A stretch of 64,000 nucleotides of DNA from Octopus vulgaris (Eukaryota), in NCBI GenBank assembly GCA_951406725.2, contig OX597817.1, forward strand, positions 18,910,001 through 18,974,000. Reading direction: 5' to 3'. Below the pieces are notes generated by a model, which ran no database searches, was not told where the DNA came from, and worked only from the letters and a program-made list of their open reading frames with translations. Position numbers and translations under genes: made by a program. Position 1 is the stretch's first letter; each line of letters begins with the position of its first letter. Below, piece after piece: positions 20,231 through 53,504 of this stretch.

Positions 20231-20616
20231 TATAGCCAGTAGCATTCGCCCCAAACGGGACTGCCATATTAGGTTTACAAATAAACATTACTTTAAAATG
20301 CTGCTACTCAATTTCTCTCGTTGAAAAATTTAGGAACAACAATGTTTCTATTTATTAGATCAGTAAGTGTTTGTCACTTAGAAAATTATATATTTTCGAA
20401 CGGGTGATTAGAAGCGCCATCTCAATTCTGTGCCGATGAAGAAAAAATAACCCTGAAACCGTACGGTCCACAGATACTGCTTTGTGCTGGGTGGGGGTTC
20501 GAAAATATATGGACGCAGATCGTGTGTCGTATAGCCAGCTGGAGACAATGTCTGCTGGCGTTAAATAACAGTAGCATTCGCCCCAAACAATAGGTTGGCA
20601 AATAATCGTTACTTTA
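20231..20616 (+). mobile_element. Terminally redundant ~330-bp-unit hammerhead-bearing element (retrozyme or pseudo-LTR-like)
   Basis: CAGTAGCATTCGCCCCAAAC at 20237-20256 and 20569-20588, with flanking partial repeats; one HHR between them. Confidence 0.6.
20427..20474 (+). ncRNA. Minimal type-I hammerhead ribozyme motif, CCGAUGA core variant
   Basis: TCTGTG-CCGATGA-AGAAAAAATAACCCT-GAA-ACCGTACGGT-C-CACAGA: 6-bp helix I, palindromic helix III, GUC site, weak helix II. Confidence 0.7.
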
Positions 20617-20756
20617 TATATGTATGTGTCTTTATACACATACATATGTATATATAGTGTGCATATTGCAGTTCTATATTTAAGAGATGAGAAATTATGT
20701 ACATTATTTACATTATTTACGATTGACGGATTTTTGTCCTCATCTTGTTTGTTGTT

Positions 20757-20802
20757 AACACAACGTTTCGGCTGATATACCCTCCAGCCTTCATCAGGTG
20801 TC
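20757..20802 (-). ncRNA. Minimal type-I hammerhead ribozyme motif (loopless palindromic helix III)
   Basis: Minus strand GACAC-CTGATGA-A-GGCTG(GAGGGTATAT)CAGCC-GAAAC-GTT-GTGTT. Confidence 0.75.
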
Positions 20803-20863
20803 TTGGGGAAATTTCGAACCTGGGTTCTCATTCCTAAGGTATTTTCCGTTGTTGTTGTTGTTG

Positions 20864-20918
<55 letters not shown>

Positions 20919-21022
20919 CATTCAGATCACTGCCTGGAATCGAACTCGGAATCTTGGGGTTAGTTGCCTGCGCTTCTAACCACTACGCCGTATGTCCACG
21001 GGCATATGGTGTCGTGGTCTGG

Positions 21023-21055
<33 letters not shown>

Positions 21056-21101
21056 TCGAAAATACATTAGGAATGAGAACCCAGGTTCGAAATTACCCCA
21101 A

Positions 21102-21150
21102 GACACCTGATGAAATCTGGAGGGTATAATATCAGCCGAAACGTTGTGTT
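21102..21150 (+). ncRNA. Second copy of the same hammerhead motif (helix II partly mutated)
   Basis: GACAC-CTGATGA-AATCTG...CAGCC-GAAAC-GTT-GTGTT. Confidence 0.65.
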
Positions 21151-21853
21151 AACAACAAACAAGACGAGGACAAATATCTGTCAATTGTAAATAATGTAAA
21201 TAAGAGTGTGCATATAATTTATATATATTGATACACACATATGCACTCTCACACATACGCGCACATATGCATATGCACACGCCTACGAACACACACACAC
21301 ACACACGTATTGCCATATAGGCATGAGCAAAGCGTGAATAAATGCGAAGTGATAAATTTTTTTACATGGAAATTTACAGGTAGAGGCAAGCAAATAATTG
21401 AAAATTATGAAATGAAAGAGAGAGACAGAGAGACAGAGAGAGAGAGAGGGGGGAGAGAGAGGGAGAGAGAGAGAAAGGCAGGTAGAAGGAAAAGGACAAA
21501 TGTGTGTAAGGATGTAAAGTGTGAAAGCATGAAAGAAATGGAAACAGACATCAATCAAGAAACAAAAAGGTAAAGAAACTATTTCTATTCTCAATCAAAA
21601 ATTAATTTTGAATTGATGTTTCATTGTGATTGACACTTTAACTATTGCGTTCCTTAATTCCTATATATTTAATTTCCGTTTGAGTTTGATGTTTCTGGTC
21701 TAGATTAACACCATTAGCGGAATCGGAACATACGCTTTTTGTATATTTTAAAGCAAAAGCCTATAGCTGCCGTCGTTAAGCCGGTACATAAAAGATATAC
21801 CAGCTTAAAATCTTGACTGAAGACATTATATTTTAACTCAGATTTTATTGATA

Positions 21854-22091
21854 AAGGTGGCAGAAACGAGCTGGCAGAAACATTAGCGCGCCGGACGAAA
21901 TGCTTAGCGGTATTTCGTCTGTCGTTACTTTCTGAGTTCAAATTCCGCCGAGGTTGACTTTGCCTTTCATCCTTTCGGGTCGATAAATAAAGTACCAGTT
22001 TCGCACTGGGGTCGATGTAATCGACTTAACCCCTTTGTCTGTCCTTGTTTGTTCTCTCTATGTTTAGCCCCTTGTAGGTAGTAAAGAAATA
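21854..22091 (+). mobile_element. tRNA-derived SINE, family N (GCCTTTCATCCTTTCGGGGTCGATAAA core, resembling Nin/Deu-type domains)
   Basis: A-box-like AGCTGGCAGAAACATTAG, B-box GAGTTCAAATTCC, AAAGAAAT tail; several near-identical copies in the window. The domain name is recalled, not verified. Confidence 0.9.
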
Positions 22092-22545
22092 TATATTATT
22101 GTCCCCTCTTTAATGTACGTGTCATGAGATAGAATATACAAATGCCAAAAGATAGACAAAAATAAGACCAAACAGCCCTACAAATCATGACATACATACA
22201 TAAACACACAAACACACACACTCACTCAAACACACACACGCACATATAATTTAAGTTTATGTGCGGATGTCTAGACGTGCAGGTATATGTATAGAAATAC
22301 ATGCATAAAACAAAACAGACAATTCTGCACATGCGCAAAACATACGTATATGCGAAAATACCCTGTTGATATATTTCAATTTCCAATTAAGAAGCCTTGG
22401 ATCTAGCTTAGAAACAATCTCTTTCTCTATTGAGAAATATTGAAATAATACTGAATAATGCCATACATATATATATATATATATATAGTCATTAGCATAC
22501 ATACATAGATACATTCGTATACATACATATATATTTAATGGTGGT

Positions 22546-22713
22546 GGAAGCACTCCGTCGGTTACGACGACGAGGGTTCCGGTTGATCCGAATCAACGGA
22601 ACAGCCTGCTCGTGAAATTAACGTGTAAGTGGCTGAGCACTCCACAGACACGTGTACCCTTAACGTAGTTCTCGGGATATTCAGCGTGACACAGAGAGTC
22701 ACAGAGAGACAAG
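22546..22713 (-). mobile_element. Family-R SINE 3' fragment
   Basis: Near-identical to 33195-33356. Confidence 0.9.
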
Positions 22714-22798
22714 GTAAATATCCCGAAGAATCATCTTGCGTAGACGACATATATTTAAACAGCACAGATTATATCAGTTGCTGAAATTTCGTCAGCGC

Positions 22799-23019
22799 CG
22801 GCAGATGGTGCTGTTCTATCACGTGATTTCACCGTATGTCGGTGATCCTCTTCACGAAGTAGCCAAATACCGAATGCCACATTGAAAATCAGTCAAAAAG
22901 GATATAGTTTAACACTTACCCAACAGTCAGTGGGATCTTTGTAAAGTTGCTACTAGCGACGAAAGTAGTTTGTAACGAATTTACGGTTAAATCACGTGAT
23001 GCAATAGTGCTATCCACTG
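22799..23019. mobile_element. Degenerate MITE-like element with ~38-bp imperfect TIRs
   Basis: ...ATCACGTGATTTCACCGTA versus TACGGTTAAATCACGTGAT... inverted. Confidence 0.5.
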
Positions 23020-23229
23020 TACGTACGTACGTACATACATACATACATACATAAAAAAAACAAATGGAATTAATAACAACATTTTCAACTGATTTAGGCA
23101 TGGAATTTGCCCAAAAGAAATGTTCATATTTGATTATAGAAGCAGGGAAGTCAATACCCCAAACCCAAAACCTGTGCATCAACTGTCTCTCTCTACCTCC
23201 CCCATTCCACACAAAGAATGTTACAACTG

Positions 23230-24513
23230 CCTAGACACAGACGAAAATGTCTCATATGAAGGAACTGTGAATAAAGATAGAGTGACCCGAGAATATTACA
23301 TCAGGCTTAGGAAAATATGACAGAATTCTCCTTTTACAACAAAACAATATCTCATAATGCATTTACAGAACAAGCGCCCATCCCAACATTTGAGATGCTT
23401 GATTGATCTGCAGAAGTAATCCACTCCATAGATATCAAAACCCACAAAATCCTGATATCAACTGGGGACTTCCACAGAAACAGTGATGGTGACAGGCACT
23501 ACTTAAGAAGAAATGGAGGTGGTAGAGGCCTGAGTTCAGTGCAGACAGCCTTCGAATGCCATATATTATCACTCAGGGAGCACCTGCTAAGCAACAGCAG
23601 CAAAAATATATATATATATCAATGCAGTGCTGAAGAGTGAAGTGAGCAACATTGTACTACTTGGCAGTGAACTCCTCAAGAAACACTCTCTTCCTGATGA
23701 TCTCCTATACAGATCCATAACAGCTGGGCTCTCTTAACGTAGAGAAGACCTTGATGGAAGGCACTCAGCATATAAGAAAAGACCATGCATGGGTATGTTG
23801 CCCGGAAGATTGAAGAAGATAGAATTGACACAACGTGCAGCCTCTCTTGGACACAAGACCACTATATCACATCACACTTTGAAGGCTATACGCTTGCAAT
23901 CCAGGAACAGGAGATTGCCACAAAGTACATGGTGTCATGTTTCTTTTGAAGACATTTTACATTTGATTAACAGCTGTCCTAAAATATCATCACGGTTCTA
24001 CCTCCCTATGCGGCACGATCTTGTTGTAAAAACAATTTACAATGCCATCCGCAGAAAAGACTATCCTGAAATAAAGTTATAAAATCCATATGTTATGGAA
24101 TACATTCATAAACACCAATTCAAGGAATATTCGTGGAGAATTCACATCAAAACGTCTGTCAAATATAAGCATAACAGGCCGTATATTGTTGTTTGGGAGA
24201 GAGGGGCAAAGGTATGTACGATCATAGGGGTCAGCTGTCCTGCAGATATAAATATCTCTTTGAAAATCAAAGAAAATGAGGATATCTATAGACAACAGCT
24301 TCGAAACCCACAGCTTTCATATCCAGACTATGAATTCATATTCATACCACTAATAATTGGAGCACTAGGCATTTGTAAGTAAATGCTTAAAGGAGAATCT
24401 GGATAAACTGGGATTTTCAGAAAGAGAAATTGACGGGCTAATTTGCACATTAAAAGTCCAAACTGTGAATGGAATAGTAAAAATATGCAATACTTTTTTT
24501 AGTTCCAAATGTG
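23230..24513 (+). mobile_element. Decayed RLE LINE 3' half (distinct subfamily)
   Basis: VNKDRVTREYYIRLRKI, RHYLRRNGGGRGL, HLINSCPKISSRFYLPMRHD, KHNRPYIVVW..IIGVSCPAD, FIPLIIGALG. Confidence 0.85.
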
Positions 24514-25526
24514 AATTTGTCTGTGTTAACTACATCCCCAAAATGGAGCATTAATGTTTGTTGGAAAGCTGTTCCATCCTCAGTGTAAGATTTGTAATAA
24601 TAAAAAAATTAGAAGAGACATGCATACACACACACACACATATACATAGAAATATGTAAAGCAGTGATACATCAAAATTGAAATGGATATAGAAGTTAAT
24701 TAGTGGAAGATGTGGGGACTGAGCATTTGCTTATATCAACCGCCTTCTCCCATAACATATTGATCCATATGTTACTTGTTTATTGCATAATTTGCCGCTA
24801 ATACATTTATATTTGAAATATAAAGCATATCATACATTTTATTGATCGAGATATGCTCAATCTCTGTGTATGAGTTTGTGTGTGAAAGTGAATGGCCCAC
24901 ACACACATGCGTTTGTAATTCAATTCATTCCAATAACTTCGATGGCAAATGTGTTGCATGCAATATTGTACAGCAACTTTACATATGTATAGATATGTTA
25001 GCATTATTTTCATTCTATAATTTACGAAAGTGGTGGTAAAATTTACGAACGTGGTAGTAAAATAGAGGAATATATACTGATCAAGGATCAATGGATATAC
25101 AAGATTATCATACATCTTTTAAAGAGAACTTATCATACCTTCATGGAACATTACAAAGGGGGGAATTAAATCCCTCATGCGAAGCATTGTTTGATTGAGA
25201 ACGGAATTAGCTTACATCCTCATTATTAGGTACGATCTTGAGTGCAGAAGAGTTTATTAATATTTCATCTCTAGCAATAAGCCCGATTGAATCTTATCTC
25301 TAGCTTTAAAAGGTTGAATATTGAATAAACACATTCTTTCTAACTTCGTTGATCTGTTAAAAGCAAGTCTTCTCTGCCGTATTTGTATAGCGTATTTGTC
25401 TTGCCTATTTTTTTCTTTATCAATATTGCCTTTTCTACGTTTCTTCATTTTTAATGACCCCCATCGGTGAGAACATCCCGTTTGTCTTTGTTCTGTTTAC
25501 TGTTTTTAATATTTGAGGCAATACAT

Positions 25527-25830
25527 GGCTGCGAGCTGCCAAACTCGTTAACATGCCGGGCAAAATGCTTAGCGGTATTTCGTCTGTCGTTACGTTGTGA
25601 GTTCAAATTCCGCCGAGGTCGACTTTGCCTTTCATCCTTTCGGGGTCGATAAATTAAGTACCAGTTCCGCACTGGGGTTAATGTAATAGATTGAATACCT
25701 AAGTATGTCCTTGTATGTCCCCTCTATGTTTAGCCCCTTGTGGGTAATAAAGAAATGGGTATTTCGTCCGTCTTTACGTTCTGAGTTCAAATTCCGGTGA
25801 GGTCGACTTTGCCTTTCATTTCGGTATGGA
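25527..25830 (+). mobile_element. Family-N SINE plus partial tandem second copy
   Basis: Full copy to ~25756, then a restart at GGTATTTCGTCCG...GCCTTTCAT. Confidence 0.88.
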
Positions 25831-25876
25831 TCAATCAGTATGGATTTCAAACACTATAAATAGGTTACAAACTTGC

Positions 25877-25921
<45 letters not shown>

Positions 25922-25930
25922 GTGTGTGTT

Positions 25931-25985
25931 CCCGAGTAAGGACAGAAATGTGAAACAAGGTGGGGAAAAATAGTACTTGAATACA
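25931..25985. repeat. Short fragment of the 42034 element terminus
   Basis: CCCGAGTAAGGACAGAAATGTGAAACAAGGTGGGGAAAAATAGTACTTGAATAC resembles 42034-42087; lies between TA tracts. Confidence 0.65.
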
Positions 25986-26006
25986 AGAGCTTTACTAATG
26001 AAGTAC

Positions 26007-26044
<38 letters not shown>

Positions 26045-26305
26045 TTAAATTAGAGATAAGACCACTATTAGGCAAATCAATCAATGAAAAACACAAACCA
26101 AAACATAAAAATAAAAAATAATTAATATAATGTACAATATATATAAAATATAAAATTTAAAATCTAAATTATTCAAATTTAGAATTAAAGTTATTAATTT
26201 ATATTTATAAATTTTTTTTGTTTATTTATTTATTTATTTTTTATATTAAATATATATAACTATTAAAAAGTATTAAAAAGTTTAATATAAGATAAAATGT
26301 AAAAC

Positions 26306-26353
<48 letters not shown>

Positions 26354-26441
26354 TAAAACGGTTTAGATAACAAAAGAAAGAGACCTCAATATTATGTAAA
26401 TAGAGGAAATTTATCTATGCAATAATATGTTACATTACTCG

Positions 26442-26514
26442 ATAGTCAAGATAAAACTCTGAGTTTCAGATGCTGAAGTGGGAATCCACGACATCTCTTC
26501 GGTTATCTGGCTAT
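26442..26514 (-). ncRNA. Type-I hammerhead motif, CCGAAGA core variant
   Basis: Minus strand ATAGCC-AGATAA-CCGAAGA-GATG...GTGG.TTCCCAC...CATC-T-GAA-ACTCAGAGT-T-TTATCT-TGACTAT. Confidence 0.7.
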
Positions 26515-27535
26515 TTGAAAACGCTATGAAAAAATACCGTTATACAAAGGGAAATTACTGTGTTATAACTCTGCTTGCCTGCGTACTATACATCGCTCGC
26601 ATTTTTCACCATAAAAATTATATAAAAATACATAAAAAATATATAAATATATATTATTTGTATATAGTCTATGACTATATACAAATAATGTAAAAATCAT
26701 TTGCTAGTATGCCACAACGATACATATGTAAGGATAAATTCAAATATGAATTGCAAGAGATCTAGTACTGTACATATTATTGACCACACATACTAAATGT
26801 ATGTGCTCTGTCTTTTCACCAATAGGCTGTGAATTAGCGAGGTGCAGTGATCCTATTATAGCGTCGGGTTTTAAAGCGCCTGAAAGTTCCAAAATTTGGG
26901 GCGAGTGGTTTGTATGTTTGGCTGTGTGGACGCCAGTGTGACCGCTTGTATGTGTGTTTTTCTGTTAGCTGTGTATGCACGGGCCTTCCTGACACCTTCC
27001 AGAGTTCAGCTTTTGACCTTATATCGTTTTGTTTTTGTATTATGTCCGCTGTAGATTTATAGGTTTATGGAGTGGTGTGTGAGGTGTCACACCCCACATT
27101 TTGAAGTATTCCCGCCAGATTTTGAATTGAATGTTGTCTATTCTCTTCAGGAACTCATCCCCAGTAGCGTAATCTCTCAGAAAAATCACGTTTAATTTCA
27201 TTAGAATGGTCACCCCACTGGCTCTTACCTTCGAATTTAAAGCAAGCTTCCTTTTTCTATGAATAGGATAATGGCGGATACAGCATTCATCTTCATTCGA
27301 AATAACACGCCTATGAACAAGAAATTTATCAATCATATGCCACTGCTTCAAAACTGAAACAATTCGGATTGCCCTGTATTTATAATTCTGTGGGATCATG
27401 GTGTTCACTATACAAAAATGCAGCTCCTGCAATATTTCCAATAGTAATAAGCCATTAGTATTACATTTCCAACTACAGATGGATATAAATAAGTAGGTGT
27501 CGATATTTACATCTATTAATATATGAATATAGATG

Positions 27536-27772
27536 AAGGCGGCGAGCTGCTAGAAACGTTAGCACGCCGGGCGAAATTCGTAGCCGTATTTCGTCTACCG
27601 TTGCGTTCCGAGTTCAAATTCCGCCGAGGTCGATTTTGCCTTTCATCCTTTCGGGGTCGATAAATTAAGTACCAATTACGCACTGGGGTCGATGTAATCA
27701 ACTTAATCCCTTTGTCTGTCCTTGTTTGTCCCCTCTGTGATTAGCCCCTTGTGGGTAGTAAAGAAATAAAGA
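27536..27772 (+). mobile_element. Family-N SINE, full length, with 16-bp TSD
   Basis: AATATATGAATATAGA at 27518-27533 and 27773-27788. Confidence 0.92.
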
Positions 27773-28496
27773 AATATATGAATATAGAGGCAATTATGCG
27801 GATAAACAAATTAGACACATGAAATATATTAAATATATTAATTTGTGTATGAGATACAAAATATATAGGCACACGTGCAAAGCGACAGAAAGCAAATGGT
27901 AGGGACTTTCAGATGATGAATTTTTAGTATAATTATATTGATATCTATATTAATAAGTCCAACTTAAGAACGACAGAGAAAATTGCGAGTATAACCGACA
28001 GAGAAAATTGAAGAGGTGGAAGAAAGATGTTATAAGCCTAACACCTGTTCGGCGATCCATAATAATGTTGGTAGATTTAGTTCATCAACAATATGCGGCT
28101 GTATGGATGCCCTTAACATTGGATAAGACGAGATCCGTCATCAGGGTAGAGAAGACCTTACCTTTCAGATGTTACAGCAGAGAAGTTCAAAGATGGAGCA
28201 TGTGTATATGAATATATACATGAGCCCAGACACACACATATGGACACACACAGTATGTGTATTTGTAATTTCTTTTACGACTGCAAACTAAAACCTGTAA
28301 CATCTTTGTAAATATAATAATTCCTCGCCCTCATGAGGGCAGTAGGCATTAATACGTTTTGCAGTTGGATTTAATCTCAGATCGTAAAGAAGATATTAGA
28401 GAACACTATAGGATACTTAATCAAATATATTACCATTTCTGTCCTTTAACTGTTTTCATATAAATACGTAGGCACACGCACGCTACTACCTGGACT

Positions 28497-28527
<31 letters not shown>

Positions 28528-28683
28528 TCACAAACACACATACACATATACATAAACACACACATATGTATATGTAGCATTTATATTACATAAATGTATA
28601 TTATATAAGTGATGTATGTATATTTCTATTATATATTTTATATACATTTATATATACATATATGCATGTATGTATGTATATGT

Positions 28684-28719
<36 letters not shown>

Positions 28720-28771
28720 GTGTACACACACACACACATATATATATATACGCACACGTTTACATACACAC

Positions 28772-28825
<54 letters not shown>

Positions 28826-28870
28826 GTGTGTATGTAAACGTGTGCCTATATATATATATATGTGTGTGTG

Positions 28871-28921
<51 letters not shown>

Positions 28922-28922
28922 G
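28497..28922. repeat. (CA)n/(TA)n compound microsatellite
   Basis: Direct observation. Confidence 0.95.
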
Positions 28923-30664: not shown

Positions 30665-31077
30665 AGGTGCAGGAGTGGCTGTGTGGTAAGTAGCTTGCTA
30701 ACCAACCACATGGTTCCAGGTTCAGTCCCACTGCATGGCACCTTGGGCAAGTGTCTTCTACTATAGCCTCGGGCCGACCAATGCCTTGTGAGTGGATTTG
30801 GTAGACGGAAACTGAAAGAAGACCGTCGTATATATGTATATATATATATATGTGTGTGTGTTTGTGTGTCTGTGTTTGTCCCCCTAGCATTGCTTGACAA
30901 CCGATGCTGGTGTGTTTATGTCCCCGTTACTTAGCGGTTCGGCAAAAGAGACCGATAGAATAAGTACTGGGCTTACAAAAAAATAAGTCCCGGGGTCGAG
31001 TTGCTCGATTAAAGGCGGTGCTCCAGCATGGCCGCAGTCAAATGACTGAAACAAGCAAAGGAGAGTAAAAGAGAGAG
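30665..31077 (+). mobile_element. Family-C SINE, full length
   Basis: AGGTGCAGGAGTGGCTGTGTGGTAAG head, GGTTCAGTCCC B-box, CCTTGGGCAAGTG, tail GACTGAAACAAG..GAGTAAAAGAG. Confidence 0.92.
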
Positions 31078-32692: not shown

Positions 32693-32770
<78 letters not shown>

Positions 32771-34531: not shown

Positions 34532-34690
34532 AAGGCGGCGAGCTGGCATAATCGCTAGCACGCTAGACAAAATAATGAGCGGCATTTAGTCCGTCGTTAT
34601 ATTTTGAGTTCAAATTCCGCCGAGGACGACTTTGCTTTTCATCAGTTCGGGCTCGATAAATTTGTACCAGTTCAACACCGAGGCTGTGAT
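34532..34690 (+). mobile_element. Family-N SINE, degenerate
   Basis: AAGGCGGCGAGCTGGCATAATCG...GAGTTCAAATTCCGCCGAGGACGACTTTGC. Confidence 0.8.
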
Positions 34691-34789: not shown

Positions 34790-36090
34790 CTTTTGCTATG
34801 TCTGTACATTTTTGTCTGAATATTTTTTTATCATACCTTTCCTATGATAGGAATTGTGTCTGTTTTTAGAATCCACAGTCGCGTTATCTCTATTTCCAGA
34901 TTTTTTTTTATTTTGATAGTTTCTCCGTTTCTTTTAGAGAAACATTGCCATCTGTTGCTATTGATGCATTGATTAGGAAGCATTTTTTCTTGGCGATCTC
35001 TGATAACTATATCTAGCGTATTGGCCTTAATTTCTGTATCTCTGTGTAGTGGCATATCCCAGATTATGGTTTCTTTTTTATTTTGTGTGACCTGTTCTTG
35101 CGTGTGTCTATACAATCTGTTGCTATTCCATGGTGTTGGCATAGCTTCCAGTGTATATATGTATATAGGTTCCAACTCTGTCTTGCCTGTGAATATATTC
35201 CTTCTTAGCCAGGACTGGGCAGCCAGAGACAATATGATTTATTGTTTCTTCTGCATCCCCACATATTCTTCAATTACTTTCTTTTCCTTACATGATTTTG
35301 GTAATTTCTGGTGGGAAGGCTTTGATCTTGTGCTGCAATTAAAAAATCCCCCAGTCGCTGTTTTGAATCCTAAGTTTCTCAGCTATTGTTGGGATTTTGC
35401 TTTGCCTGTTTCTTTTCTGATTAGTTTAACCCAGTGGATGGAAGCACTCCGTCGGTTACGACAACGAGGGTTCCGGTTGATCCGAATCAACGGAACAGCC
35501 TACTCGTGAAATTAACGTGTAAGTGGCTGAGCACTCCACAGACACGCGTACCCTTAACGTAGTTCTCGGGGATATTCAGCGTGACACAGAGAGTGTCAAG
35601 GCCGGCCTTTTGAAATACAGGTACAACAGAAACAGGAAGTAAGAGTGAGAGAAAGTTGTGGTGAAAGAGTACAACAGGGATCACCACCATCCCCTGCCGG
35701 AGCAGTATTTACCATGAAGGAGCTTTTCTTGCCATCGTTTTATCATTATCCGTTGCTGTTCCAGTTTTGGTTTCCATTTCAGTTGTCTTACATGTTTCGT
35801 TGATTCTTCTTTTTCTTCATAGTTCTTAGGTGGTATGACTTGTTTTTTTTTGTATTTGTCAGTTTCCTTATTGAATGGAAACAGTTTTTTTTGTTTTGTT
35901 CTGGTTTTGTGGCTATTTGTATTTGTATTTGTATTGCTTCCGAAGTAGTTCTATGGTGGTTATTCTGTAATAGTTTTCTAGCTGTAGAAGCCCTCTACCA
36001 AATTCGATACGTTGTATATATAACTTTTGTATGTCAGATTTTGGGTGGTGCATCCTAACTCCTGTCATTACGTTACTTATTTTCTTGTCT
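34790..36090 (-). mobile_element. Decayed RLE LINE, interrupted by a family-R SINE
   Basis: ORF track: MHHPKSDIQKLYIQRIEFGRGLLQLENYYRITTI and ETIIWDMPLHRDTEIKANTLDIVIRD..LEIEITRLW..IPIIG. Confidence 0.88.
35440..35703 (-). mobile_element. Family-R SINE, 5'-truncated
   Basis: Matches 37690-37949. Confidence 0.9.
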
Positions 36091-38345: not shown

Positions 38346-38389
<44 letters not shown>

Positions 38390-38592
38390 AAGTAGATAAA
38401 TGAATTATCTTATTACGGATTATTCAAAAGATAACCGACACCTGGGTAGCAAAAATCACAACAGAAAAAGCACGGTTGAGGTTACGACCATGGGGCCTAA
38501 AATCCGTGCCTTAGTACGGAAATTTGAAGTTTTATATATTTAGTGTAGGAAGAAATGGAGCTGAACGAAGATTTAACAAAATTCCTTTTATT

Positions 38593-38678
38593 ATTTTCTA
38601 CATATGTTTCAAAGGCTGCAAAGTCCCTAATTCGGATTAAATAAGGAGTCCATTTTGCAGCCTTCTCTTCAGGAAAAT
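38593..38678 (-). ncRNA. Type-I hammerhead ribozyme motif with long helix II
   Basis: Minus strand ATTTTC-CTGAAGA-GAAGGCTGCAAA...TTTGCAGCCTTT-GAA-ACATATGT-A-GAAAAT. Confidence 0.8.
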
Positions 38679-38874
38679 CCAGGAACTTAATTCTTCAACA
38701 AAATGTTAACCGGATTTTGACCTTGAATTATCTCAACGGACTTTCTCGTCGGCTTTCAACCAGCCTGGCGTCAACGCATATTGATAGACAGTTTGTGCCA
38801 TTTATTCCATGGGCTCCTCGTGAGCGTTTGTCGAAAAGCTCGCTGTGCATTTTGTTGGAGAATTAAGTTCCTGG

Positions 38875-38960
38875 ATTTTCCTGAAGAGAAGGCTGCAAAA
38901 TGGACTCCTTATTCAATCCGAATTAGGGACTTTGCTGCCTTTGAAACATATGTAGAAAAT
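38875..38960 (+). ncRNA. Type-I hammerhead ribozyme motif (inverted partner)
   Basis: Same motif as 38593-38678, with one helix II mismatch (TTTGCTGCC). Confidence 0.78.
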
Positions 38961-39010
38961 AATAAAAAGGAATTTTGTTAAATCTTCGTTCAGCTCCATT
39001 TCTTCCTACA

Positions 39011-39076
<66 letters not shown>

Positions 39077-40130: not shown

Positions 40131-40134
<4 letters not shown>

Positions 40135-40445: not shown

Positions 40446-40513
40446 CATTATATGACGGAACGCACGCATCCATTTCTAAGTAAGATTGTACTTAATATAT
40501 ATATATATATATA

Positions 40514-41019: not shown

Positions 41020-41070
<51 letters not shown>

Positions 41071-41970: not shown

Positions 41971-41998
41971 ATCGGGTTTCCTTTGTCCTTTTCTTTCC

Positions 41999-42033
<35 letters not shown>

Positions 42034-42035
<2 letters not shown>

Positions 42036-42268
42036 GGAGTAAACACATAAATGGGAAACAAGGTGGAAAAAAGAGTACTCAAATACCAGTGGTAGAGTAA
42101 TATGCTTTATTTAAAGCAGCAGAAAATTCAACAAAACCTGTTACTCTGAGTTTTCCGTTGCCGTTCATCGGACAGTTTTTGCTAGATTCTAGCAAAAACT
42201 GTCCGTTGAACGGCAACAGGAAACTCAGAGTAACAGATTTTGTTGAATTTTCTGCTGCTTTAAATAAA
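42034..42268. mobile_element. Palindromic element (81-bp arms, 42106-42268) carrying degenerate CCGAUGA hammerheads
   Basis: Symmetry axis at 42187; the two arms together give CTGT-CCGATGA-..-GAA-ACTCAGAGT-A-ACAG; TA tracts on both sides. Confidence 0.7.
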
Positions 42269-42271
42269 AAA

Positions 42272-42347
<76 letters not shown>

Positions 42348-43589: not shown

Positions 43590-45230
43590 ATTCGATGATG
43601 GGCAATGAGCTATAAGTGATGGAAGAACTCTCCGTTTTTGGTCAACAGAAACAATTTACTATAATGCTGAAAAACTTAAAACACATGCTTAATGTGTAGC
43701 GTCTTTTGCAAAGCTAATTAGGAAGAGAAGTAGTATAAGGGAAAAAATATTAAAAAAAACTTCTCAACATATGGAGAAACGACATGCATCAGTGTAACTC
43801 TGAATGACTTTGTGGATATCTTTATATATAAAAGTGAAGTTGTGTGAGTGTCTGTCTCCTCCGATTTAGATTCCTAACTACTCCCACATTTTGCGGTGCA
43901 GTTTAACCAAAACCGGGTATCTTATAATCGTGATTCATATCGAGCCCTTCTGGGTATTAGCGCGCGTCTATGATGAGTCTACGATTTTAAAAATAATTTA
44001 CCATAATTTTTTCCATTTTAAATCATATTTTTTAAATAAAGGGAAGTAACTCTCTAAAAATGTCTACGATGAGTCAACGATTTAAAAAAAAATTTACCAT
44101 AATTTTTTTCCATTTTAAATCATATTTTTTAAATAAAGGGAAGTAACTCTCTAAAAATGTCTACGATGAGTCAACGATTTAAAAAAAAATTACCATAATT
44201 TTTTTTCCATTTTTAATACATTTTTTGCTGTTTTTTTTGGCTATAACTCTCTAAAAATGCTTTATAGTTATTTCCCTTACAAACCCGAGCAACGCCGGGC
44301 GATACTGCTAGTTGTAGAGAAAACACAAGTTTCTACTCTTAAGAATGAATACATCATGGCAACACACGATCGATTTCAGCGTTTTAAGTATCGCTCAATA
44401 TTGCTTAATACACAGACGACAGGAACGTCTTCACGTGGCGACAAAGAATGAGCAGCTGTTCTACTTGATTCACGGTAAAATTTATTGCTCCGGGAGTTCG
44501 AGACTGGCTCGTTTTGAAATCGAATGCTAAAATAACGTATATTTCTAAGGAATGAAACTCAGCACTTGGTTTCAATGCTATAAAAGCTGTATTACTATCT
44601 TAGTAATACTTTAGATCCCAAACAGAAGCCACTATTTACCAATTGGACATACAAATGCCTATGAGCTGATACTCTAAAATTCACGTTTCTGTTATGTGGC
44701 GATCGAATAACGAACAGAGGATTATCAAAAGAGTGTTAGATTTATTTTGGATTTCTGCCGATCCATCAAATAATTTTGTTAGGGTAAGAACCCTAAAAAA
44801 ACAAAGCTTTGCTTCATGCAGAGCATGTTCCAGGTCACTCATCTAACGTGGGTGAACTGAACGATAAAGTTGAAATAGCTTTTCTTCTTCAAAAAGCAAC
44901 TCGGATGAGTCATCCTTTGGAACTAATGGTTATTGATACGTTCGATATTTACTAATAACGGCGCATAATGCAAGTAAACGAATTGTGAAGTAATTTTGAT
45001 ATGGTTACAATATAATGATTGCTATTGAAAATTTAACAGTAACGAAATTGCAGATTCTCTGGTTAATTAAGACCCGAAGTAGAATGTTCATTAGCAGATT
45101 TAGGTGATAGAGCAGGTTGGAATAATCATATGTTGAAGAAGAGTGAATGGTGTCATACTGAACAAGCTAGAACGAATCATAAAGGGGCAGAAATCCCCCA
45201 AAATAAGCGATTCGATTAAGCGAAACTCAT
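43590..45230 (+). pseudogene. Tigger/pogo-type transposase relic split by Helitron copy 3
   Basis: AKLIRKRSSI, MATHDRFQRFKYR..TGTSSRGDKE (ASxGWFxRFK-like), VMWRSN, KALLHAEHVPGH..VEIAFLLQKATRMSHPLELMVIDTF (LDNAPGH..FLPPNTTS..QPMDQGVI-like). Confidence 0.75.
43819..44311 (+). mobile_element. Non-autonomous Helitron, copy 3 (extra internal ~97-bp repeat)
   Basis: A|TC...CCCGAGCAACGCCGGG...CTAG|T; GATGAGTC unit present three times versus twice in copies 1 and 2. Confidence 0.92.
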
Positions 45231-45342
45231 GAAATATGTATCAAACAGAAAATGTGTATTTGAGGCCGGTTGTATCAACTAAAGCCATTGGAATAGTTAT
45301 CCCAGCATAGCTGAAAAAAGTAAAGGGATATTACGCTATAAG

Positions 45343-45392
<50 letters not shown>

Positions 45393-45499
45393 CAAGATGC
45401 ATACACATTCTCTGTCTCACACACAAACATACGTATGCATCCATGTATCTATGTATAAATATCTGTGTATGTATTTCTCACTCTTTCTCTTTATATATT

Positions 45500-45543
<44 letters not shown>

Positions 45544-46508
45544 CATGTATGTATTTATGCATTTATGTATGTATGTATATTTACATACAAATGCCTACGT
45601 TCAATTGCCAAAGTTGTTTTTTTATATCATCGTGCATGAATTATATAGTGCTTTCGATTGAAACCGAAATACAATTTTCCTCTGCAAATATTGGTCTCAT
45701 GACTATTGAAACCAAATCGATATGAAAAATAATATTGGAAGTGACATAAATTGTGAAATAAGTTCCATAATGTTTGGAACCATGAAGTCAATATCCATAT
45801 TCAATATGACGACATATAATTTAACTTACGCGGTTAATGCTTTTGAGATGTGCACGGGTCTCATGTTTACAATTTCCTCTTCTATTAAATAAGGGCTTTG
45901 TGCCTAGTTAATTATAAATCAATATTCAAATCTAGCATGGTAACCAATCAGATGGAACAGAAATATGAATAATATTCATAGATAAAAGAAATACCATAAA
46001 CTATTCTCATGTCTCCATCTTCAATAATCCCACAACTTCGCTGGATCGAATCAACGGATTAGCGTGCGTGGTCGAATAACCTGCTGGGCATGTCATTAGC
46101 AGTCAAATAAAACTCAGATCACGCTCTGATATTTTAAATGCAAGATGATCAGAGCCTGAGTGATCCTGATCATTGATCTGATGAAGTAGTGCAGAGTTTA
46201 GTCTCATCAACAACCAAAGCAATATACGGAAGCGTCAAAAACCATTACACCGACATTTATACGGAATGAAAAGCTAAGATATAAAGGAGAAATAGAAAAG
46301 CAAAAATTAGTTTCAAAGTTACGTCTCTGATACATAAAATGCCTTTCTATCAATCATTACTTAGTGAAGAAAACCATTTTTTCTACAAAATTTGTATAAA
46401 ATATTAAAAGAATCAGAACAAAAAATTACGAAGCATGTGAAGTTTATAGCATATGATTCCTTCGAAAAAAAAAATGTAAATAAGCAGCTGCAATTTATAA
46501 TTATACGT

Positions 46509-46509
<1 letters not shown>

Positions 46510-46594
<85 letters not shown>

Positions 46595-46862
46595 ACACCA
46601 CCCACACCTACACTCACATTTTTGTGTGAATCACATGTGTCAATTGATATATATATACCATAGTAACGATACACCCGCACATACGTATACTGCAGTAAAT
46701 ACTGACATTCAAACACACACACACACACACACACACACATTAGTATATATACAGACATAAATATACACCCATGAACATACTAATACGTACTAGCATATGC
46801 ATACTTAGAAACGAACATTCATGAGAGAGAGAACTATAAGAGAGCGAGAGAAAGAGAGAGAA

Positions 46863-46906
<44 letters not shown>

Positions 46907-47027
46907 GGAATAGGAAGAGAAGATTTGGTCAAAAAATCTGTTACAGAACATATTTTTATATTTATATGAATCGGTGTACGAGAGTGCGTGCTTATATAGA
47001 CAACCAATAATTTACTATGAATACACC

Positions 47028-47100
<73 letters not shown>

Positions 47101-47166
47101 CGTATATATTGCGAGTGAGTGTATGGACAATATAAGTTCTCTCTATAAGCACGTAGACCCGTACAG

Positions 47167-47230
<64 letters not shown>

Positions 47231-47278
47231 ATGATATTTATATATATATGTATGTATGATATACATATATATATATAT

Positions 47279-47321
<43 letters not shown>

Positions 47322-47350
47322 CGTACATATATACATACATACGTATATAT
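46510..47350. repeat. Microsatellite cluster (CA)n, (AG)n, (TA)n, (CTAT)n
   Basis: Direct observation. Confidence 0.95.
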
Positions 47351-48149
47351 ATACGTAACTCTATGTGTATATATACATTGAAAAATATATCTGTATATAT
47401 TCATATTATCCCATTGCTTTCTCATTTATTTCAGACAGTAAAATGATTGCAAATCTTTCTCACGTAAACTAAAATTCTATTTGACATAAATGTCCCCAAG
47501 ATATTCTTATGTATCTATTAGTCATGTCGATATTCTTATTTTATATATATTTTGTGATGTCTTCATGTTTATTGTATTTTTTTCTAATGTCTAAGCTAGC
47601 TGTTTTTTTTGGTGCGCGCGCACATAAAACACACGCAAAAAAGAAAAATATATAAAAGATTTGCATACATATAGAATAAAAAATTGAAACAAATAAAAAA
47701 AAAAGATCTTTTTAAGACATAGATGTGTCAGAGTAATGCATTAATTATTGAACTAGTTTGCTGCTTTTATATAGATTTATTTTTAAACAAGAATTACAAA
47801 ACTACAAAACTCAAAATCTAAATTTATTAGTATAAACAAAAAATACAAAACCTGTGAAACACAATATACTAAAATAATCGATATAAATATGTAATTGATT
47901 TCAAAGTGCAATGTATTAAATAATGAAATATATTTTTCTCGATATATTATTTATGTTTTCTAACTTTTTTCTTTCTATATATTTTCTTCGATTATTTAAA
48001 ACAATATATATGCATACTCACACAGAAATCACGCAGACTCATATATCGCGACATATGTTCTGATTAGAGCATCACCAACAGATCCTCACCTTACTTAGCT
48101 GGTGCTCGTAATTGCCAGCTCGGACTCTGTGAAAGACTGCGTATTCTCC

Positions 48150-48830
48150 ACTAATCTGCAGTACCCATCAATAGCAAAAACGATATGTCTGGTTGTTGCC
48201 ACCAGATGAACGCCCTCTTGGGAACTTCGAGCAAGTGATCGCCAACAGTATAAGGGGGTGTATCTTGGGTTCGATCTCCAGTATCTTCAGAATATTTGCC
48301 TCACAAATTCCACTGCAGATCCACTGGTGTTTCTTTCAACTTCTCCCTATTGTCATATAAATATAGTGCTGGCCGCTTTCCACGCAATGCCGCACTTAAC
48401 GAAATCATAAAGCATAACCTAGACGCCAAAGGCTTCCCTCTCAGCTCAAATCAGCGGGGTTATACCGAAGAGGAAATGAAAGGCCTGACGGTATGACAAT
48501 TTTCTCGGTCCGTAACGATCTTGGATATACATGCTGTGACACCACCAGCAGTAAATTGGTGTGTTCAGCATGAAGCTGAGAAAAAGAAACTGAGAAAATA
48601 TTGATCACATTCTGACATGTTTATGGTCGAGCCTATGGCAGTGGAGACTCCTGGCGTTCACGGCCCCTGGACACTGCTCACTTCTATCGAGGCAAGGATG
48701 GCTATTTGCAAGTGCAAGTCCTCTGAGTCAGAGCAGCTGTTCCAGCGAATCTCCCGTACCATTCTCCAGGGCAATTCCTTTTCCAGTTTGTCTGTTTGGA
48801 CCACGAGGCGGTCTGAATTATTGGGAATCG
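48150..48830 (+). mobile_element. Decayed CRE-like RLE LINE 3' end
   Basis: SYKYSAGRFPRNAALNEIIK, RGNERPDGMTIF, EPMAVETPGVHGP, LFQRISRTILQGN. Confidence 0.8.
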
Positions 48831-49015
48831 AGAGAATGTAAAATTTCGTAGATTACTACTCGTACTTAGTAAACCATCGATTTCCTTCCGAAGGACTTCT
48901 AAAGAATATATATGAAGGAGAGGGTATCTAACCGCTTCCCGCATAGACCTCAAATTGACATTCCAACTTTATGTATCATCTGTAATTATCCATGGCCCTC
49001 TTTATATGTGTGCGT

Positions 49016-49052
<37 letters not shown>

Positions 49053-49056
<4 letters not shown>

Positions 49057-49753
49057 GAGGCTGCGGTGAATATATTGTCGTCTAAATTACGCAAAATTGA
49101 AAATGACGCTGATATCCCATTTTAACAGATACATTTACCAAAATTACATAAAATATTTTGAAATACTAAAGAGTAAATTTATTCAATAAACTCCTCATTG
49201 GCTTCAACCACGGCCTCCAGACGACTTCGGAATCTCCTGCAACTTTTCTGGACGGTTTCTTGGTTTAAGTTGGTGAATGCTGCCATAATCTTAATCTTTA
49301 GAACATCTTTGGTGTTACAAGGTGTTATACTTGTAACAAATCAAGAACTCCGACAAATATATGCACTAAATTGCTGCTCTTGCTGCCTTCTTGCTCAACA
49401 TACGACTCAGTAGGATATATTCTACGTTCCTCTTATCTTAAGCAATAATGTGGAAACACCTTTGATACCTAAGTACAATAAAGCATTAGTTATATAACGT
49501 GGGATATCTTGCCTTTGAAGACTGTATGGGTTTTAATAAAATACTCTTACTTGTAGACCCGACGGCCATTGATATTTAAGTCGGACTTCAATTTTAGTGA
49601 CTGGGAAAGTTACGGTAATCTATTTTTGAATTTCATTTTAGTATTCTTTTTATTATTATAACGATTCTATGAAGAGAATAACTAGTTAAATTACAGCTTA
49701 GCAACTGTATTATTTCAACGACATATGGTGATAATAATTCACAACGGCCTTTT
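49053..49753 (-). mobile_element. Tc1/mariner-derived internally deleted element
   Basis: Minus strand CRRFRSRLEAVVEANEEFIE* (transposase C-terminus-like); imperfect TIRs AAAGAGGCTGCGGTGAATATATTGTC / GATAATAATTCACAACGGCCTTTT. Confidence 0.65.
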
Positions 49754-52274
49754 GGTCACCTCATCGATAAACTATTCAGGGACATAATATTTGTACAATA
49801 TATTTGGATGTCGAGTCAATGAGGGGGAGAGCCGTTTTTAACCAAACTAAATTCGCATGTAGTTATTCGAGATAAGATGTAAAAAAAAAAAAAAAACTCT
49901 TTAAATTTAACAACTTACGGTCCATGTTTGATTATGCTATAGAAAATTTGCTTTCATTGTCATGAAGTAACGGTGCTGCTGTCAGAATACGAACTACCGG
50001 TATTCACGGTTAGAATCAAATTAACTATCAACTCGACCAGCTTCAATTATCGTTACGGAGGAGAGGCTGGTTAAAATCTAGTGTTTAAAATCTACAAATT
50101 TTTCTTTATTATTTTGCTTTCATTATTCTACGTAGTAAATCGAAAATGCTAAAAACACACCATCCTGTTTCCTTTCATATTGTAAAATCTTATTGTTTGA
50201 TTTCGATGTCTTAATTAACAGGGTTAAGTGAATTAGCCATAAGTGAATAAATAACCAAATAGAAAACTGAAAGGAAAATAATCAACATACACGTGATATT
50301 CATTCCTGATTAAAGCTCCAAATTTTTTTTAATAATACTTGTTATTTATTTAAATAGTAAAATACGTTTAAAACTTTTGTTTGGAGTCTGAGACATGACA
50401 GGAACTTAATTTCGAGTTACCAATCATGATGACATCGAGTGGAAGAATCGATCTTTCAGATACATTGTCGGGTCAAAGGTTCGTGCATGTATTTAATGAT
50501 TTTTAACAGCTGTTATATTGTGATTCAAGCTACACTGATCGGAGGGTGGCATGGGATGCTAATAACGCCTGCCAAGCTACGTGGAAGCCTTTTAATCTGA
50601 AGTGAGTCACTTTATAATTTGACTATGGTGTCAGCCAGCTTGCCTCTAGGTGATGTTCGATTTTTGGAAGGAACGAAAGCAAAATTAAAATTTCACATGA
50701 CTTTGCTATAGCAGGTCAAAAGTACAGTACTCCGATACACTGAAGTGGTGAATGCAGGTTTATCATATAAATTTGTAGGTTTGATATATTGTTGCTTTTG
50801 TGTTGTTGGTTGTTTTTCAGTAATCTTGGTCACCTGTTAATAATATAACAACATAACGATTTACAGTCTTCAATCTTAAACTAGATTACTCCGTCTTTAT
50901 TTAGTTATTGTCCGCGCTGTTCTCGGTTTAGCTATGAACGAGCAAACCTATCAGCACAGACATTCCATCCGTGACTATTTCATCTCATTTTCAGGTATAG
51001 TGTATCCAGAAACACTTTATTTGATATATTTTGTTTCTCGAGACGTCAGATTGTCACTTGCAAACGATTTACAACGACTTTATAATATGCTTCTTTGTTT
51101 TTATCTTTTAAGTATTAGGTACTGAAGCGTACAGATGACCAATAAGATGCCGACGACCGCTTTGTTCAAAGCCTCCCTGGACCTCAAGTGGCCTGAACTC
51201 TTTACATGAACACCACCCTGTACTTAACTCCATGTCCCCCTACATGGCCTTGCTATTTGCTTTTGAGCCAAATTAACTAACTAACTAACTAACTAACTAA
51301 TTTGATACGATAGCAGAGAAAGGGCACAGAGTTTCGTAACCTCTGATTACGACTATTTTATTTTTTCTGCAGCTAGGGTTATTTTACTCAGTCTTTATAT
51401 CTTAATACATCTGTAACAGAGTATGGACAACTCTTGCATCATACTGAAATAAGACGATCGTAAATTATCAAGCCAATTGCTTAATGATAACAAATCTGTT
51501 GATCCGGTATTTCCCATTATAATACCATTACTTAAACGTCTCCATAGATTAATTCTCACCTAATATTTAACCGTCCAACAACCTAAATACAAATAAGCAG
51601 AGTAAATCGACACAACTCAATCTTGTACATAGAAAAACAATACAAATAGTGTTAATTAGTATGGATCACTATGTTCAGATCTGGCTGCGAGAAATGATAA
51701 CTGCGATGGAAATTTATCATGTACAAAGTCTGGATTTTAGTTTCATCGATTTCATCGACAACACTAAGGATTTCGAGGTTTAATGAAATGAATTAATGAA
51801 TTTCCATATTACCATAGAGCTTCTATGTATGACTTCTACGCATGTTGAAGCCGAACACAGGAGCATTTCAATTTAGAATGATATACGTGGGTGAATGCTG
51901 ATAAAAAGGAACAAATTTTAGCGACAATAATTCTTTCTGACACAGGCACAAGGCTAGAAACTTGAGTGAAAGGTGTTACTAGTTACATGACTAGTACTTT
52001 ACTTTACTGACTCTGGAAGGTAAAATAAAAGGTAAAGTTGGTCGCGTTGGGATATGAACTCAGATTTCAGTTAGTCCGAATATATATCTGAACCACTTTA
52101 TCCAACGTCATTTCTATTTAACCATTTAAAAAAATCAACCATCCTCCAGCATAATTCCATTAATAAGTCAGGGCATGGAAAAACACACAATCACTGCAGG
52201 TTTAAAATACATGTGGGAAAACTAGGACAAACAAAACGTATGAATAAAATGAAATGAAATAAATTGCATATAGT

Positions 52275-52805
52275 TAACTGATCTTCACTGACTGAAAGTG
52301 ATATATTCATATTTTGAATTAGTATAAAAGATGGGAGGTAGCAAATATTCTGCTCAGTACCACTAATTTGCTTGTCAGTTGCTTTACCTTCACTAGTTGA
52401 GTATTCTCCTTAGAGGCTGACGATATGTGCATCTCTGATCATGAGTAGGAGTGGTGAGGGTGCATCGTAACCATGTTCTCGGTGGAATGCTTGAGAGTTT
52501 GAATAAGTCAACTCAGGAAACATGTGTGTTTCGTTCATCATCCTTAAACAAATCTTATTCAGGGTTCTTTTGAGCAGTATGGGCTACTCGACGTGAAGGA
52601 AATTCTAACTGGCCCCTCCTAAACAGATTTGTTATCATTAAGAAATTGGCTTGATAACTTACCATCGTCTTATTTCAGTATGATGCAAGAGTTGTCCATA
52701 CTCCTCCTAAAAGCTTGTACTGATATGAGACACCATGTCGCGTAGGCTTCGTATGTTGCATTCCAGTATCACTTTGACGGCATGCATTGCTCTCTCACTC
52801 ACTCA
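52275..52805 (+). mobile_element. Diverged copy of the 36150-36708 element, followed by (TAA)n
   Basis: Shared blocks listed for 36150; carries an 82-bp foreign insert. Confidence 0.75.
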
Positions 52806-52840
<35 letters not shown>

Positions 52841-53354
52841 TATTATAGAGCTCGACGCTATCAAAGGACGGGTATTGGATAACAGCAGCAGAGGAAACGA
52901 GAAAAATACAGTTCTTACTGACAAATGTAATCTCATAGTACAAACAGCGGTGAAATTTTTAATAATCCTCAGGAAAAGAACAGTGATAGCTTGCTCGATG
53001 AGAGACATATCTGGAAGAAGACAATAAAACTAATGGTCGTATGACAGATGAGCAATAGGCATTCTACGATAGAATAAAGGCAAGCCTACAGGAGAACAGG
53101 AGCGACATTATTTGGAAACTTAAAAGGGTTGATCGGTGGAAATTGAACCAAGAAACGAAAAATGTCAATAAAATTCTGAAATATATCACAACAAAAAACG
53201 TCACAGAAACAAATAATTTGATCAGAGCAACAACTATTGTTATAGCAGAAAATGTGGTTGTTGATGTCAAGAAAAGAAATATAATGGGAATGACAGAAGA
53301 AAAGAAGCATACAGGCAGAATTAGATATGCTCTCGAAGGACATTTTTGTGTTAC

Positions 53355-53504
53355 AACCCAGATTCGAAATTTTCCCCAAGACACCTGATGAATGCTGGAG
53401 GGTATATCAGCCGAAAAGTTGTGTTAACAACAAAGATGAGGACAAATATCCGTCAAAAGTAAATAATGTAAATAGTGTACATAATTTCTCATCTGTTAAA
53501 TATA
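53355..53504 (+). mobile_element. Headless copy of the hammerhead-tailed element (HHR at 53380-53425); last bases at 53952-53972
   Basis: Matches 21079-21203; GACAC-CTGATGA..CAGCC-GAAAAGTT-GTGTT (helix III C>A). Confidence 0.8.

Follow-up and report, generated by a model that had tools for sequence, protein, structure and literature searches.

We analysed a 64,000-nucleotide stretch of the Octopus vulgaris genome (GenBank assembly GCA_951406725.2, contig OX597817.1, positions 18,910,001 to 18,974,000 of the forward strand), hereafter the window, and found nine copies of a minimal hammerhead ribozyme that belong to five repeat families, labelled A to E (Table 1). Each hammerhead is placed by the position and strand of its C3. 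All five families bear type I hammerheads of the type found in Penelope-like elements (PLEs), with a self-complementary helix III, and all are repeat families with hundreds to thousands of copies. Taken together, our results make it very probable that B, C, D and E are the 5'-truncated 3' ends of four protein-coding PLEs, and that A, a non-coding hammerhead repeat of 359 bp, likely owes its insertion to the same machinery.

An earlier, sequence-only reading of this DNA had listed hammerheads at several places, and all nine copies were found there. Its description of their layouts as complete fits the four near-intact copies (20797-, 26502-, 38672- and 38881+); the remaining five (20433+, 21107+, 53385+, 42171- and 42203+) are damaged. 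Self-complementarity of helix III, which it had asserted for every family, is correct as the overall type and needs correction in detail. In family B the palindrome is only ACGT, the outer bases of AACGTT being core and cleavage positions; in family C, helix III (ACTCAGAGT) is of odd length and leaves a central mismatch in the dimer; and copy 53385+ has lost its palindrome.

Table 1. Hammerhead-bearing repeats in the window, with clades as indicated by motifs.
Feature	Position	Strand	Remarks
Family A copy	20237..20616	+	~1.06 units of the 359-bp permuted non-coding repeat; ~84% identical to consensus; TA-rich end
Family A hammerhead	20427..20474	+	C3 20433; core CCGATGA (U4C); helix II down to 2 bp; helix III ACCGTACGGT; predicted cleavage after 20468
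Family B left arm	20675..21003	-	3' end of Penelope/Poseidon-type PLE: tRNA-like segment, (AAT)n, hammerhead, 3' tail
Family B tRNA-derived segment	20925..20997	-	A-box-like and B-box-like motifs; candidate internal promoter for RNA polymerase III
Family B minimal hammerhead	20757..20802	-	Intact; C3 20797; extra A after A9; helix III ACGT; predicted cleavage after 20762
Family B right fold-back arm	21000..21214	+	Stub of tRNA-like head; hammerhead 21102-21150, C3 21107, helix II broken
Family B third copy	53355..53504	+	5'-truncated; hammerhead 53380-53425, C3 53385, helix III palindrome lost
Family C copy	26351..26654	-	5'-truncated 3' end of Hydra-clade PLE; (TA)n end
Family C hammerhead	26508-26449	-	C3 26502; core CCGAAGA (U4C); helix III ACTCAGAGT
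Family D left arm	38385..38705	-	~190-bp tail; (TA)n end
Family D left-arm hammerhead	38678-38593	-	Intact; C3 38672; 12-bp helix II; helix III ACATATGT
Family D right arm	38704..39013	+	5'-truncated 3' end of Hydra-clade PLE; (TA)n end; hammerhead 38875-38960, C3 38881
Family E main arm	42034..42187	-	Hydra-clade PLE 3' end in (TA)n; ~75-bp tail
Family E main-arm hammerhead	42175-42138	-	C3 42171; core CCGATGA (U4C); one core-adjacent change (first base of GAAA)
Family E fold-back arm	42187..42271	+	Hammerhead 42199-42236, C3 42203, core broken (CCGTTGA)

A strict descriptor (helix I of at least 4 bp, core C[UC]GANGA, helix II of at least 2 bp, GAAA, self-complementary helix III, UH) matched the window five times (A, B, C and the two D copies), compared with a mean of 0.04 and a maximum of 1 in 300 blockwise dinucleotide shuffles. 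Without the palindrome requirement the descriptor also took in the E copy 42171-, for six matches against a shuffle mean of 0.23 and a maximum of 4. Because the descriptor had been written after the motifs had been seen, the flanks of the sampled loci were scanned separately (536,400 bases, some flanks redundant), which returned 23 matches, 18 of them distinct, against 0.35 in 20 shuffles. Six of these distinct matches come from families A to E and 12 from other families, and all helices differ yet pair. The motif rate is thus unlike that of shuffled sequence, in line with the sequence-only reading, and the shuffles of window and flanks rule out a chance origin. The flank matches suggest that tens of thousands of such hammerheads are present genome-wide. 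The 12 additional flank hammerheads represent about 10 other families, at sampled genomic loci L006, L018, L048, L063, L075, L089, L138, L153, L222, L280 and L320 (L-numbers throughout denote sampled loci of this genome). No hammerhead model was among the matches listed in two Rfam searches (all 27 in one, 150 of 194 in the other), and the miRNA-like matches in Rfam were microsatellite or fold-back artefacts below the gathering score.

For each DNA search of the 2.8-Gb genome, we took the best 40 copies by score and examined 25 of the 40 per family, supplemented by follow-up samples. The numbers of candidates at first look (A 1231, B 1949, C 2693, D 1460, E 552) are not copy numbers; exact patterns matched 938 times for E and 1970 times for B, with 0 matches for reversed controls. 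When the five parent elements were compared, they shared no DNA similarity except microsatellites.

The sequence-only reading had regarded the families as small non-autonomous elements and had proposed a check for linkage to Penelope open reading frames (ORFs). That check, once run, linked B, C, D and E: longer genomic copies of these four run upstream into an ORF with reverse transcriptase (RT) and GIY-YIG endonuclease domains, so that the non-autonomous description survives for the retrozyme-like family A alone. In B to E the 3' ends are fixed and the 5' ends variable, many insertions carry an inverted second arm, and inverted or tandem pseudo-long terminal repeats (pLTRs) are found. A frequent location in TA microsatellites, also claimed earlier, holds for three families and fails for one: among copies with a recognisable 3' end in the 25 loci, (TA)n follows that end in 17 of 22 for C, 18 of 23 for D and 16 of 19 for E, and in 0 of 21 for B.

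In family C, the ORF lies directly upstream and encodes an RT (YKDD), a CxCX5C linker, GIY-YIG, CxxC..E and CxH; in the nearest Atlas clusters, some of the members carry RVT_1 and GIY-YIG. Family D is near full-length in L126 and L127, each with an inverted 1-kb copy at the 5' end, and has a 794-aa open frame in L128. The D protein contains RWF, DKT, YRDD, CxxC..E and CxH, has an N-rich low-complexity insert of ~170 residues in place of the CxCX5C linker (L126, L128), and its RT is 40-43% identical to that of E. For E itself, L291 supplies the N-terminus and RT with RWK, DKT and YRDD, the CxCX5C linker is also present, and loci chosen by E upstream sequence included a collinear endonuclease fragment in 17 of 30 cases and the E hammerhead in 19 of 30. 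None of the three has CCHH inside GIY-YIG, and all have CxxC and CxH beside conserved E and N. Craig et al. (PMC8557442, in the part of the paper used here) give RWK, DKT, CxCX5C, CxxC, CxH and no CCHH as the marks of the Hydra clade. This set is complete in E, complete in the recovered part of C and complete in D except for CxCX5C, with RWF for RWK; we call D Hydra-like on the strength of its other Hydra motifs and its RT identity to E, despite the absent linker. We take C, D and E as 5'-truncated 3' ends of protein-coding PLEs and assign them to the Hydra clade on these motifs rather than from a tree. Naiad, considered as a clade for C and D, was ruled out by the C-terminal endonuclease. Pfam gave no match for four C/D and three E protein pieces.

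Copies of C and D share a fixed 3' end with smoothly staggered 5' ends, D copies are 97-99% identical, and C, D and E are young, with near-intact ORFs. For E, a score-ranked sample had given the impression of a fixed non-autonomous hairpin element; this was rejected, as the first 30 of the 938 exact-pattern matches had staggered 5' ends leading to the ORF. Family C was present in four contig sets, a result that speaks to presence only. Two preferred 3' ends each were seen in A (~60 bp apart), D (~190 bp) and E (~75 bp), spacings that exceed the 30-40 bp given for a PLE tail. Older and diverged sequences related to the E tail and E hammerhead lie at 25886-25987 of the window and at positions 1-200 of L103.

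Family B leads to a different type of parent. Loci L047 and L032 join the B segment to an endonuclease ORF, and 19 of 20 loci selected by the endonuclease run into the B segment (one being the query locus). In the longer loci the ORF carries GLNF, DKG and YVDD, with CSC inside GIY-YIG, and Pfam matched one of four B protein pieces (RVT_1, E=1.4e-10). The protein has two cysteines inside GIY-YIG and a C-terminal endonuclease, without the zinc-finger linker, and by these motifs we assign B to 5'-truncated 3' ends of a Penelope/Poseidon-type PLE. Its hammerhead resembles the minimal ones of Penelope/Poseidon elements in the available part of a 2014 study (PMC4209133), with a 5-bp helix I, a 5-6-bp helix II, an extra base after A9, G10.1-C11.1 and a palindromic 15.2-16.2, and the copies are likewise opposite-strand pairs 100-700 bp apart or, mostly, single truncated copies.

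Unlike those elements, B has a 70-base tRNA-derived segment followed by (AAT)n between the stop codon and the hammerhead. Of 30 tRNAs compared, a genomic tRNA-Arg(TCG) fits the consensus of this segment (17 of 20 loci) best, with 45 of 70 positions identical and a z of 8.4 over 200 shuffles; the assignment of a source tRNA is tentative, as the 30, drawn from an Rfam family search, cover only six amino acids. A pattern search for the tRNA-Arg gene gave no match. The segment keeps A-box and B-box motifs at tRNA spacing, and its cloverleaf has decayed and no longer folds as a tRNA.

Family A consists of permuted pieces, 79-96% identical to the consensus, of a 359-bp unit with 44% GC, no ORF and a type I hammerhead (6-bp helix I, 4-bp helix II). 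Across 40 loci with 72 segments, 5' ends are scattered over all 18 bins of the unit, whereas 49 of the 72 3' ends fall in two narrow bins ~60 bp apart, often before TA; many copies are longer than one unit. As a circle, the unit folds at -140.4 kcal/mol, compared with -88.7 +/- 5.5 (z -9.4), and helix I has a long extension. Over the whole unit, identity to the closest relatives does not exceed 85%, and only 18 of 53 cores are intact, which makes A an old family and probably an inactive one. In its sequence organization A looks like a non-autonomous, retrozyme-like element, for which a circular or tandem RNA may have been copied beyond unit length, as in non-LTR (non-long terminal repeat) retrozymes, and likely inserted by PLE machinery. 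Non-LTR retrozymes, which the accessible parts of two sources describe as PLE derivatives (PMC7229834; bioRxiv 10.64898/2026.07.22.740005), have a 150-450-bp non-coding unit of low GC, and A shares with them the hammerhead type and helix lengths, a highly self-paired circle and tandem junctions. They form tandem repeats with two or more complete hammerheads and linear and circular RNA, whereas A reaches at most ~1.9 units, in old copies, in the sampled loci, and it differs further in its U4C core and longer palindromic helix III.

Families A, C and E carry U4C cores, which are missed by CUGANGA descriptors. The core was CCGANGA in 32 of 34 C copies, and positions 4-5 were CG in 38 of 44 E copies and in 29 of 53 A copies; seven further A copies had CA, consistent with CpG decay from C4. 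C occupied position 4 in 3 of the 12 flank hammerheads of other families. Relatives of C joining at L132, at contig ends, have different helix sequences and the usual U4 core, which suggests that C4 is derived in family C. The core search string of Craig et al. begins with cuganga in the portion of the paper at hand (PMC8557442). As U4C cores escape such descriptors and Pfam missed the Hydra-type proteins, such elements are easily left as unknown repeats.

By known PLE biology, the GIY-YIG nuclease would nick the target, (TA)n for C, D and E, and the RT would prime at the 3' end of the RNA and usually stop early, so that most copies would hold only the last 150-350 bases, where the hammerhead lies. 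A snap-back or second priming event could then produce the head-to-head arms, and dimeric hammerheads in tandem transcripts would trim the precursor. The palindromic helix III is predicted to let two hammerheads form an active dimer in tandem transcripts, with single copies cleaving poorly. Cofolding of A and of D gave the swapped hammerhead dimer itself as the minimum. In about 11 of 53 A copies, counted by eye, helix III is two bases shorter and still self-complementary, which points to selection on symmetry. In fold-back insertions, such as that at 42106-42268, the antisense arm would base-pair with the hammerhead and so silence it. Cervera and de la Pena, as far as their text was available, reported no cleavage for the minimal monomer and low cleavage for dimers (PMC4209133).

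How well does an origin as PLE ends account for all of this? It could instead be that the five families are independent non-autonomous ribozyme elements. Most copies are indeed short and non-coding, A has no ORF, and in B and E the 5' ends cluster strongly a little upstream of the hammerhead, as might result from short RNAs serving as templates; but in many loci B to E run directly into RT and GIY-YIG ORFs, and 5' ends stagger smoothly in C and D, for which independence is largely refuted, leaving this a very improbable account overall. Several observations nevertheless weigh against PLE ends that cleave as dimers. Sampling of the best-scoring 40 biases the copies and at first misled the reading of E; the clade assignments lean on motifs and not on a tree; the N-terminus of C (the RWK and DKT region) is absent from the sampled copies; and a search of sequencing runs for C listed no confirmed RNA run. 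Among the 72 A segments, just 5 reach across two hammerhead positions, mostly decayed ones; most A cores are no longer intact, and the sampled A loci contained no long tandem array, the longest reaching ~1.9 units. The cofold minimum of C and E has an intermolecular helix III and not helix I, and for B, with its 4-bp helix III, the dimer (-22.3 kcal/mol) is not favoured over two monomers (-24.0). U4C lowers activity in vitro, although it permits viroid infection (PMC3088659). A narrower alternative concerns A, which might be the terminal repeat of an autonomous PLE absent from the sample and not a retrozyme. E was misjudged in the same way on its first sample, the two-site 3' ends, inverted arms and TA flanks of A are all PLE-like, and retrozymes are reported as derived from pLTRs in the part of the preprint available (bioRxiv 10.64898/2026.07.22.740005). 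Yet no PLE ORF was collinear with A in its sampled loci: upstream of A in 40 loci there is only the end of the 359-bp unit, an inverted arm or unrelated flank, and the sole adjoining PLE fragment, in L018, lies downstream with its own hammerhead. We consider a missed parent decidedly unlikely, with the case against it weakened by both A samples being score-ranked and hence biased.

For B, the question is what the tRNA-derived segment does. Short B copies may spread like short interspersed elements (SINEs), with the captured segment as an internal RNA polymerase III (Pol III) promoter, a tentative proposal to which we give slightly less than an even chance. No firmer is its full form, in which B would be a Penelope/Poseidon element with a captured Pol III promoter, and each 330-base end a self-transcribing hammerhead SINE moved by a telomerase-like PLE RT. 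Alternatively, and this we see as an evenly balanced possibility, the wall of 5' ends would reflect snap-back at a natural hairpin or a Pol II start, and the tRNA-like segment would be a passenger SINE inserted in the 3' untranslated region. In the first 30 of the 1970 exact matches to the segment (27 insertions), 28 start at -22 to +17 of tRNA +1 and 20 at -12 to +6, with a hammerhead body downstream in 23 and none nearby in five. Only two of the 30 continue upstream past this wall into the ORF, whereas some E copies extend more than 700 bases upstream. Such a wall is consistent with transcription from an internal promoter, and the A-box and B-box spacing and the many asymmetric junctions, with the direct arm kept to +1 and the inverted arm variable, also speak against a passenger. 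The 329-base copy lacks T4 runs, which is weakly compatible with Pol III transcription. The passenger explanation gains from a short hairpin that overlaps tRNA +1, at which many copies pivot, and from E, which has no tRNA-like segment and also shows a 5' peak (13 of 30 matches start at most 7 bases from the pattern and about three more do so by eye, three larger values being alignment artefacts in fold-back copies). It gains too from the decayed cloverleaf: ARAGORN found no tRNA in the 25 B loci, nor in the B consensus at relaxed thresholds, and Rfam gave no tRNA match for the segment. Across the families, it is also conceivable that the hammerheads no longer cleave usefully and are kept as a structural signal or as passengers of the 3' end. 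The U4C cores in three families, the weak helix II of E, the retention of both sides of the cut site in insertions and the existence of Naiad PLEs without hammerheads would fit this, as would the weak cleavage that minimal PLE hammerheads show in vitro (PMC4209133) and the failure of 8 of 9 frog dimer elements to cleave (bioRxiv 10.64898/2026.07.22.740005), both as given in the available text. We think it unlikely: at least 15 families that differ in helix sequence have retained the core and the helices, and all 18 distinct flank matches have U or C at position 4.

The kind of element, its palindromic helix III and its (TA)n preference are already published, so the earlier expectation of a probably uncatalogued set can stand at most for individual families, Repbase and Dfam not having been covered. 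Minimal hammerheads with small palindromes were described in PLE terminal repeats in thousands per genome, in many families and as opposite-strand pairs, in the part seen of the 2014 study (PMC4209133), and the tables of Craig et al. (2021, PMC8557442) that we could use include Hydra PLEs with palindromic helix III and (TA)n targets, one of them from Octopus (Hydra-1_oBim). With these, C, D and E share the C-terminal GIY-YIG, CxxC and CxH, (TA)n targets, and odd or even palindromic helices III, along with RWK and DKT in E, RWF and DKT in D and the CxCX5C linker in C and E. Among the entries of their File S2, Penelope-3_HM has the helix III of C and E, and Hydra-2_aMil has nearly helix I and III of E. 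The hammerheads of C, D and E differ from that listed for Hydra-1_oBim, indicating other families; a fragment in L018, comprising an endonuclease and hammerhead region, agrees by eye with the hammerhead and flanks published for Hydra-1_oBim and is 38-41% identical to C. C and E further depart from the listed Hydra-clade elements in having C4, all 26 Hydra rows of File S2 having U4, and D in being longer (~3.5 kb), in carrying the N-rich insert in place of CxCX5C and in its long, branched helix II. Small-RNA-derived, Pol III-type promoters, of which B has a candidate, precede the hammerhead in SINE-like Schistosoma repeats (PMC6765202) and lie inside the terminal repeat of the Helenus/Cassandra miniature elements (TRIMs; PMC10886601), on the evidence of the parts available. 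Unlike both, which are a non-autonomous satellite and an LTR element, B carries the segment within the 3' end of a PLE that encodes protein. Less usual are the tRNA segment of B, the U4C core in A, C and E, and the location of D in (TA)n without the Hydra zinc linker. A literature search, which covered neither the 1994 octopus SINE paper nor Repbase, found no tRNA-headed PLE. Ohshima and Okada reportedly described three tRNA-derived octopus retroposons in 1994, so short B copies have possibly been described already. Lunse et al. are said to have treated dimeric PLE hammerheads.

The window also contains other repeats. An abundant SINE-like repeat, probably a CORE-type octopus SINE, occurs at 53498-53930 (partly tandem at 53498-53871), 25531-25835, 21855-22097, 27541-27768, 34537-34672 and 17622-17741. 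ORF fragments with zinc knuckle and restriction-like nuclease motifs lie at 55079-56040, 3228-3620, 34831-35238 and 53059-53350, presumably from a non-LTR retrotransposon; the B copy at 53355 abuts the last of these. A repeat with 97-103-bp internal tandem units is present at 15316-15518, 43966-44226 and 11990-12394, with inverted relatives elsewhere in the window.

Animal genomes are known to hold PLE hammerheads in massive numbers, and Octopus to harbour Hydra PLEs; the present finding adds five families to this published class. Being young and with near-intact ORFs, C, D and E offer good material for testing the role of PLE hammerheads. If indeed fixed in several successful families, U4C hammerheads would widen what PLE hammerheads tolerate. 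Family D, lacking the linker and yet found in (TA)n, is a test of the proposal that the zinc linker guides PLEs to (TA)n; a Hydra-like element that targets (TA)n without that linker would likewise widen what PLE targeting tolerates. Should the tRNA-derived head of B prove to work as a promoter, it would illustrate a route from a PLE end to a SINE-like element, and B would represent the origin of Schistosoma-type promoter-plus-hammerhead repeats caught in progress.

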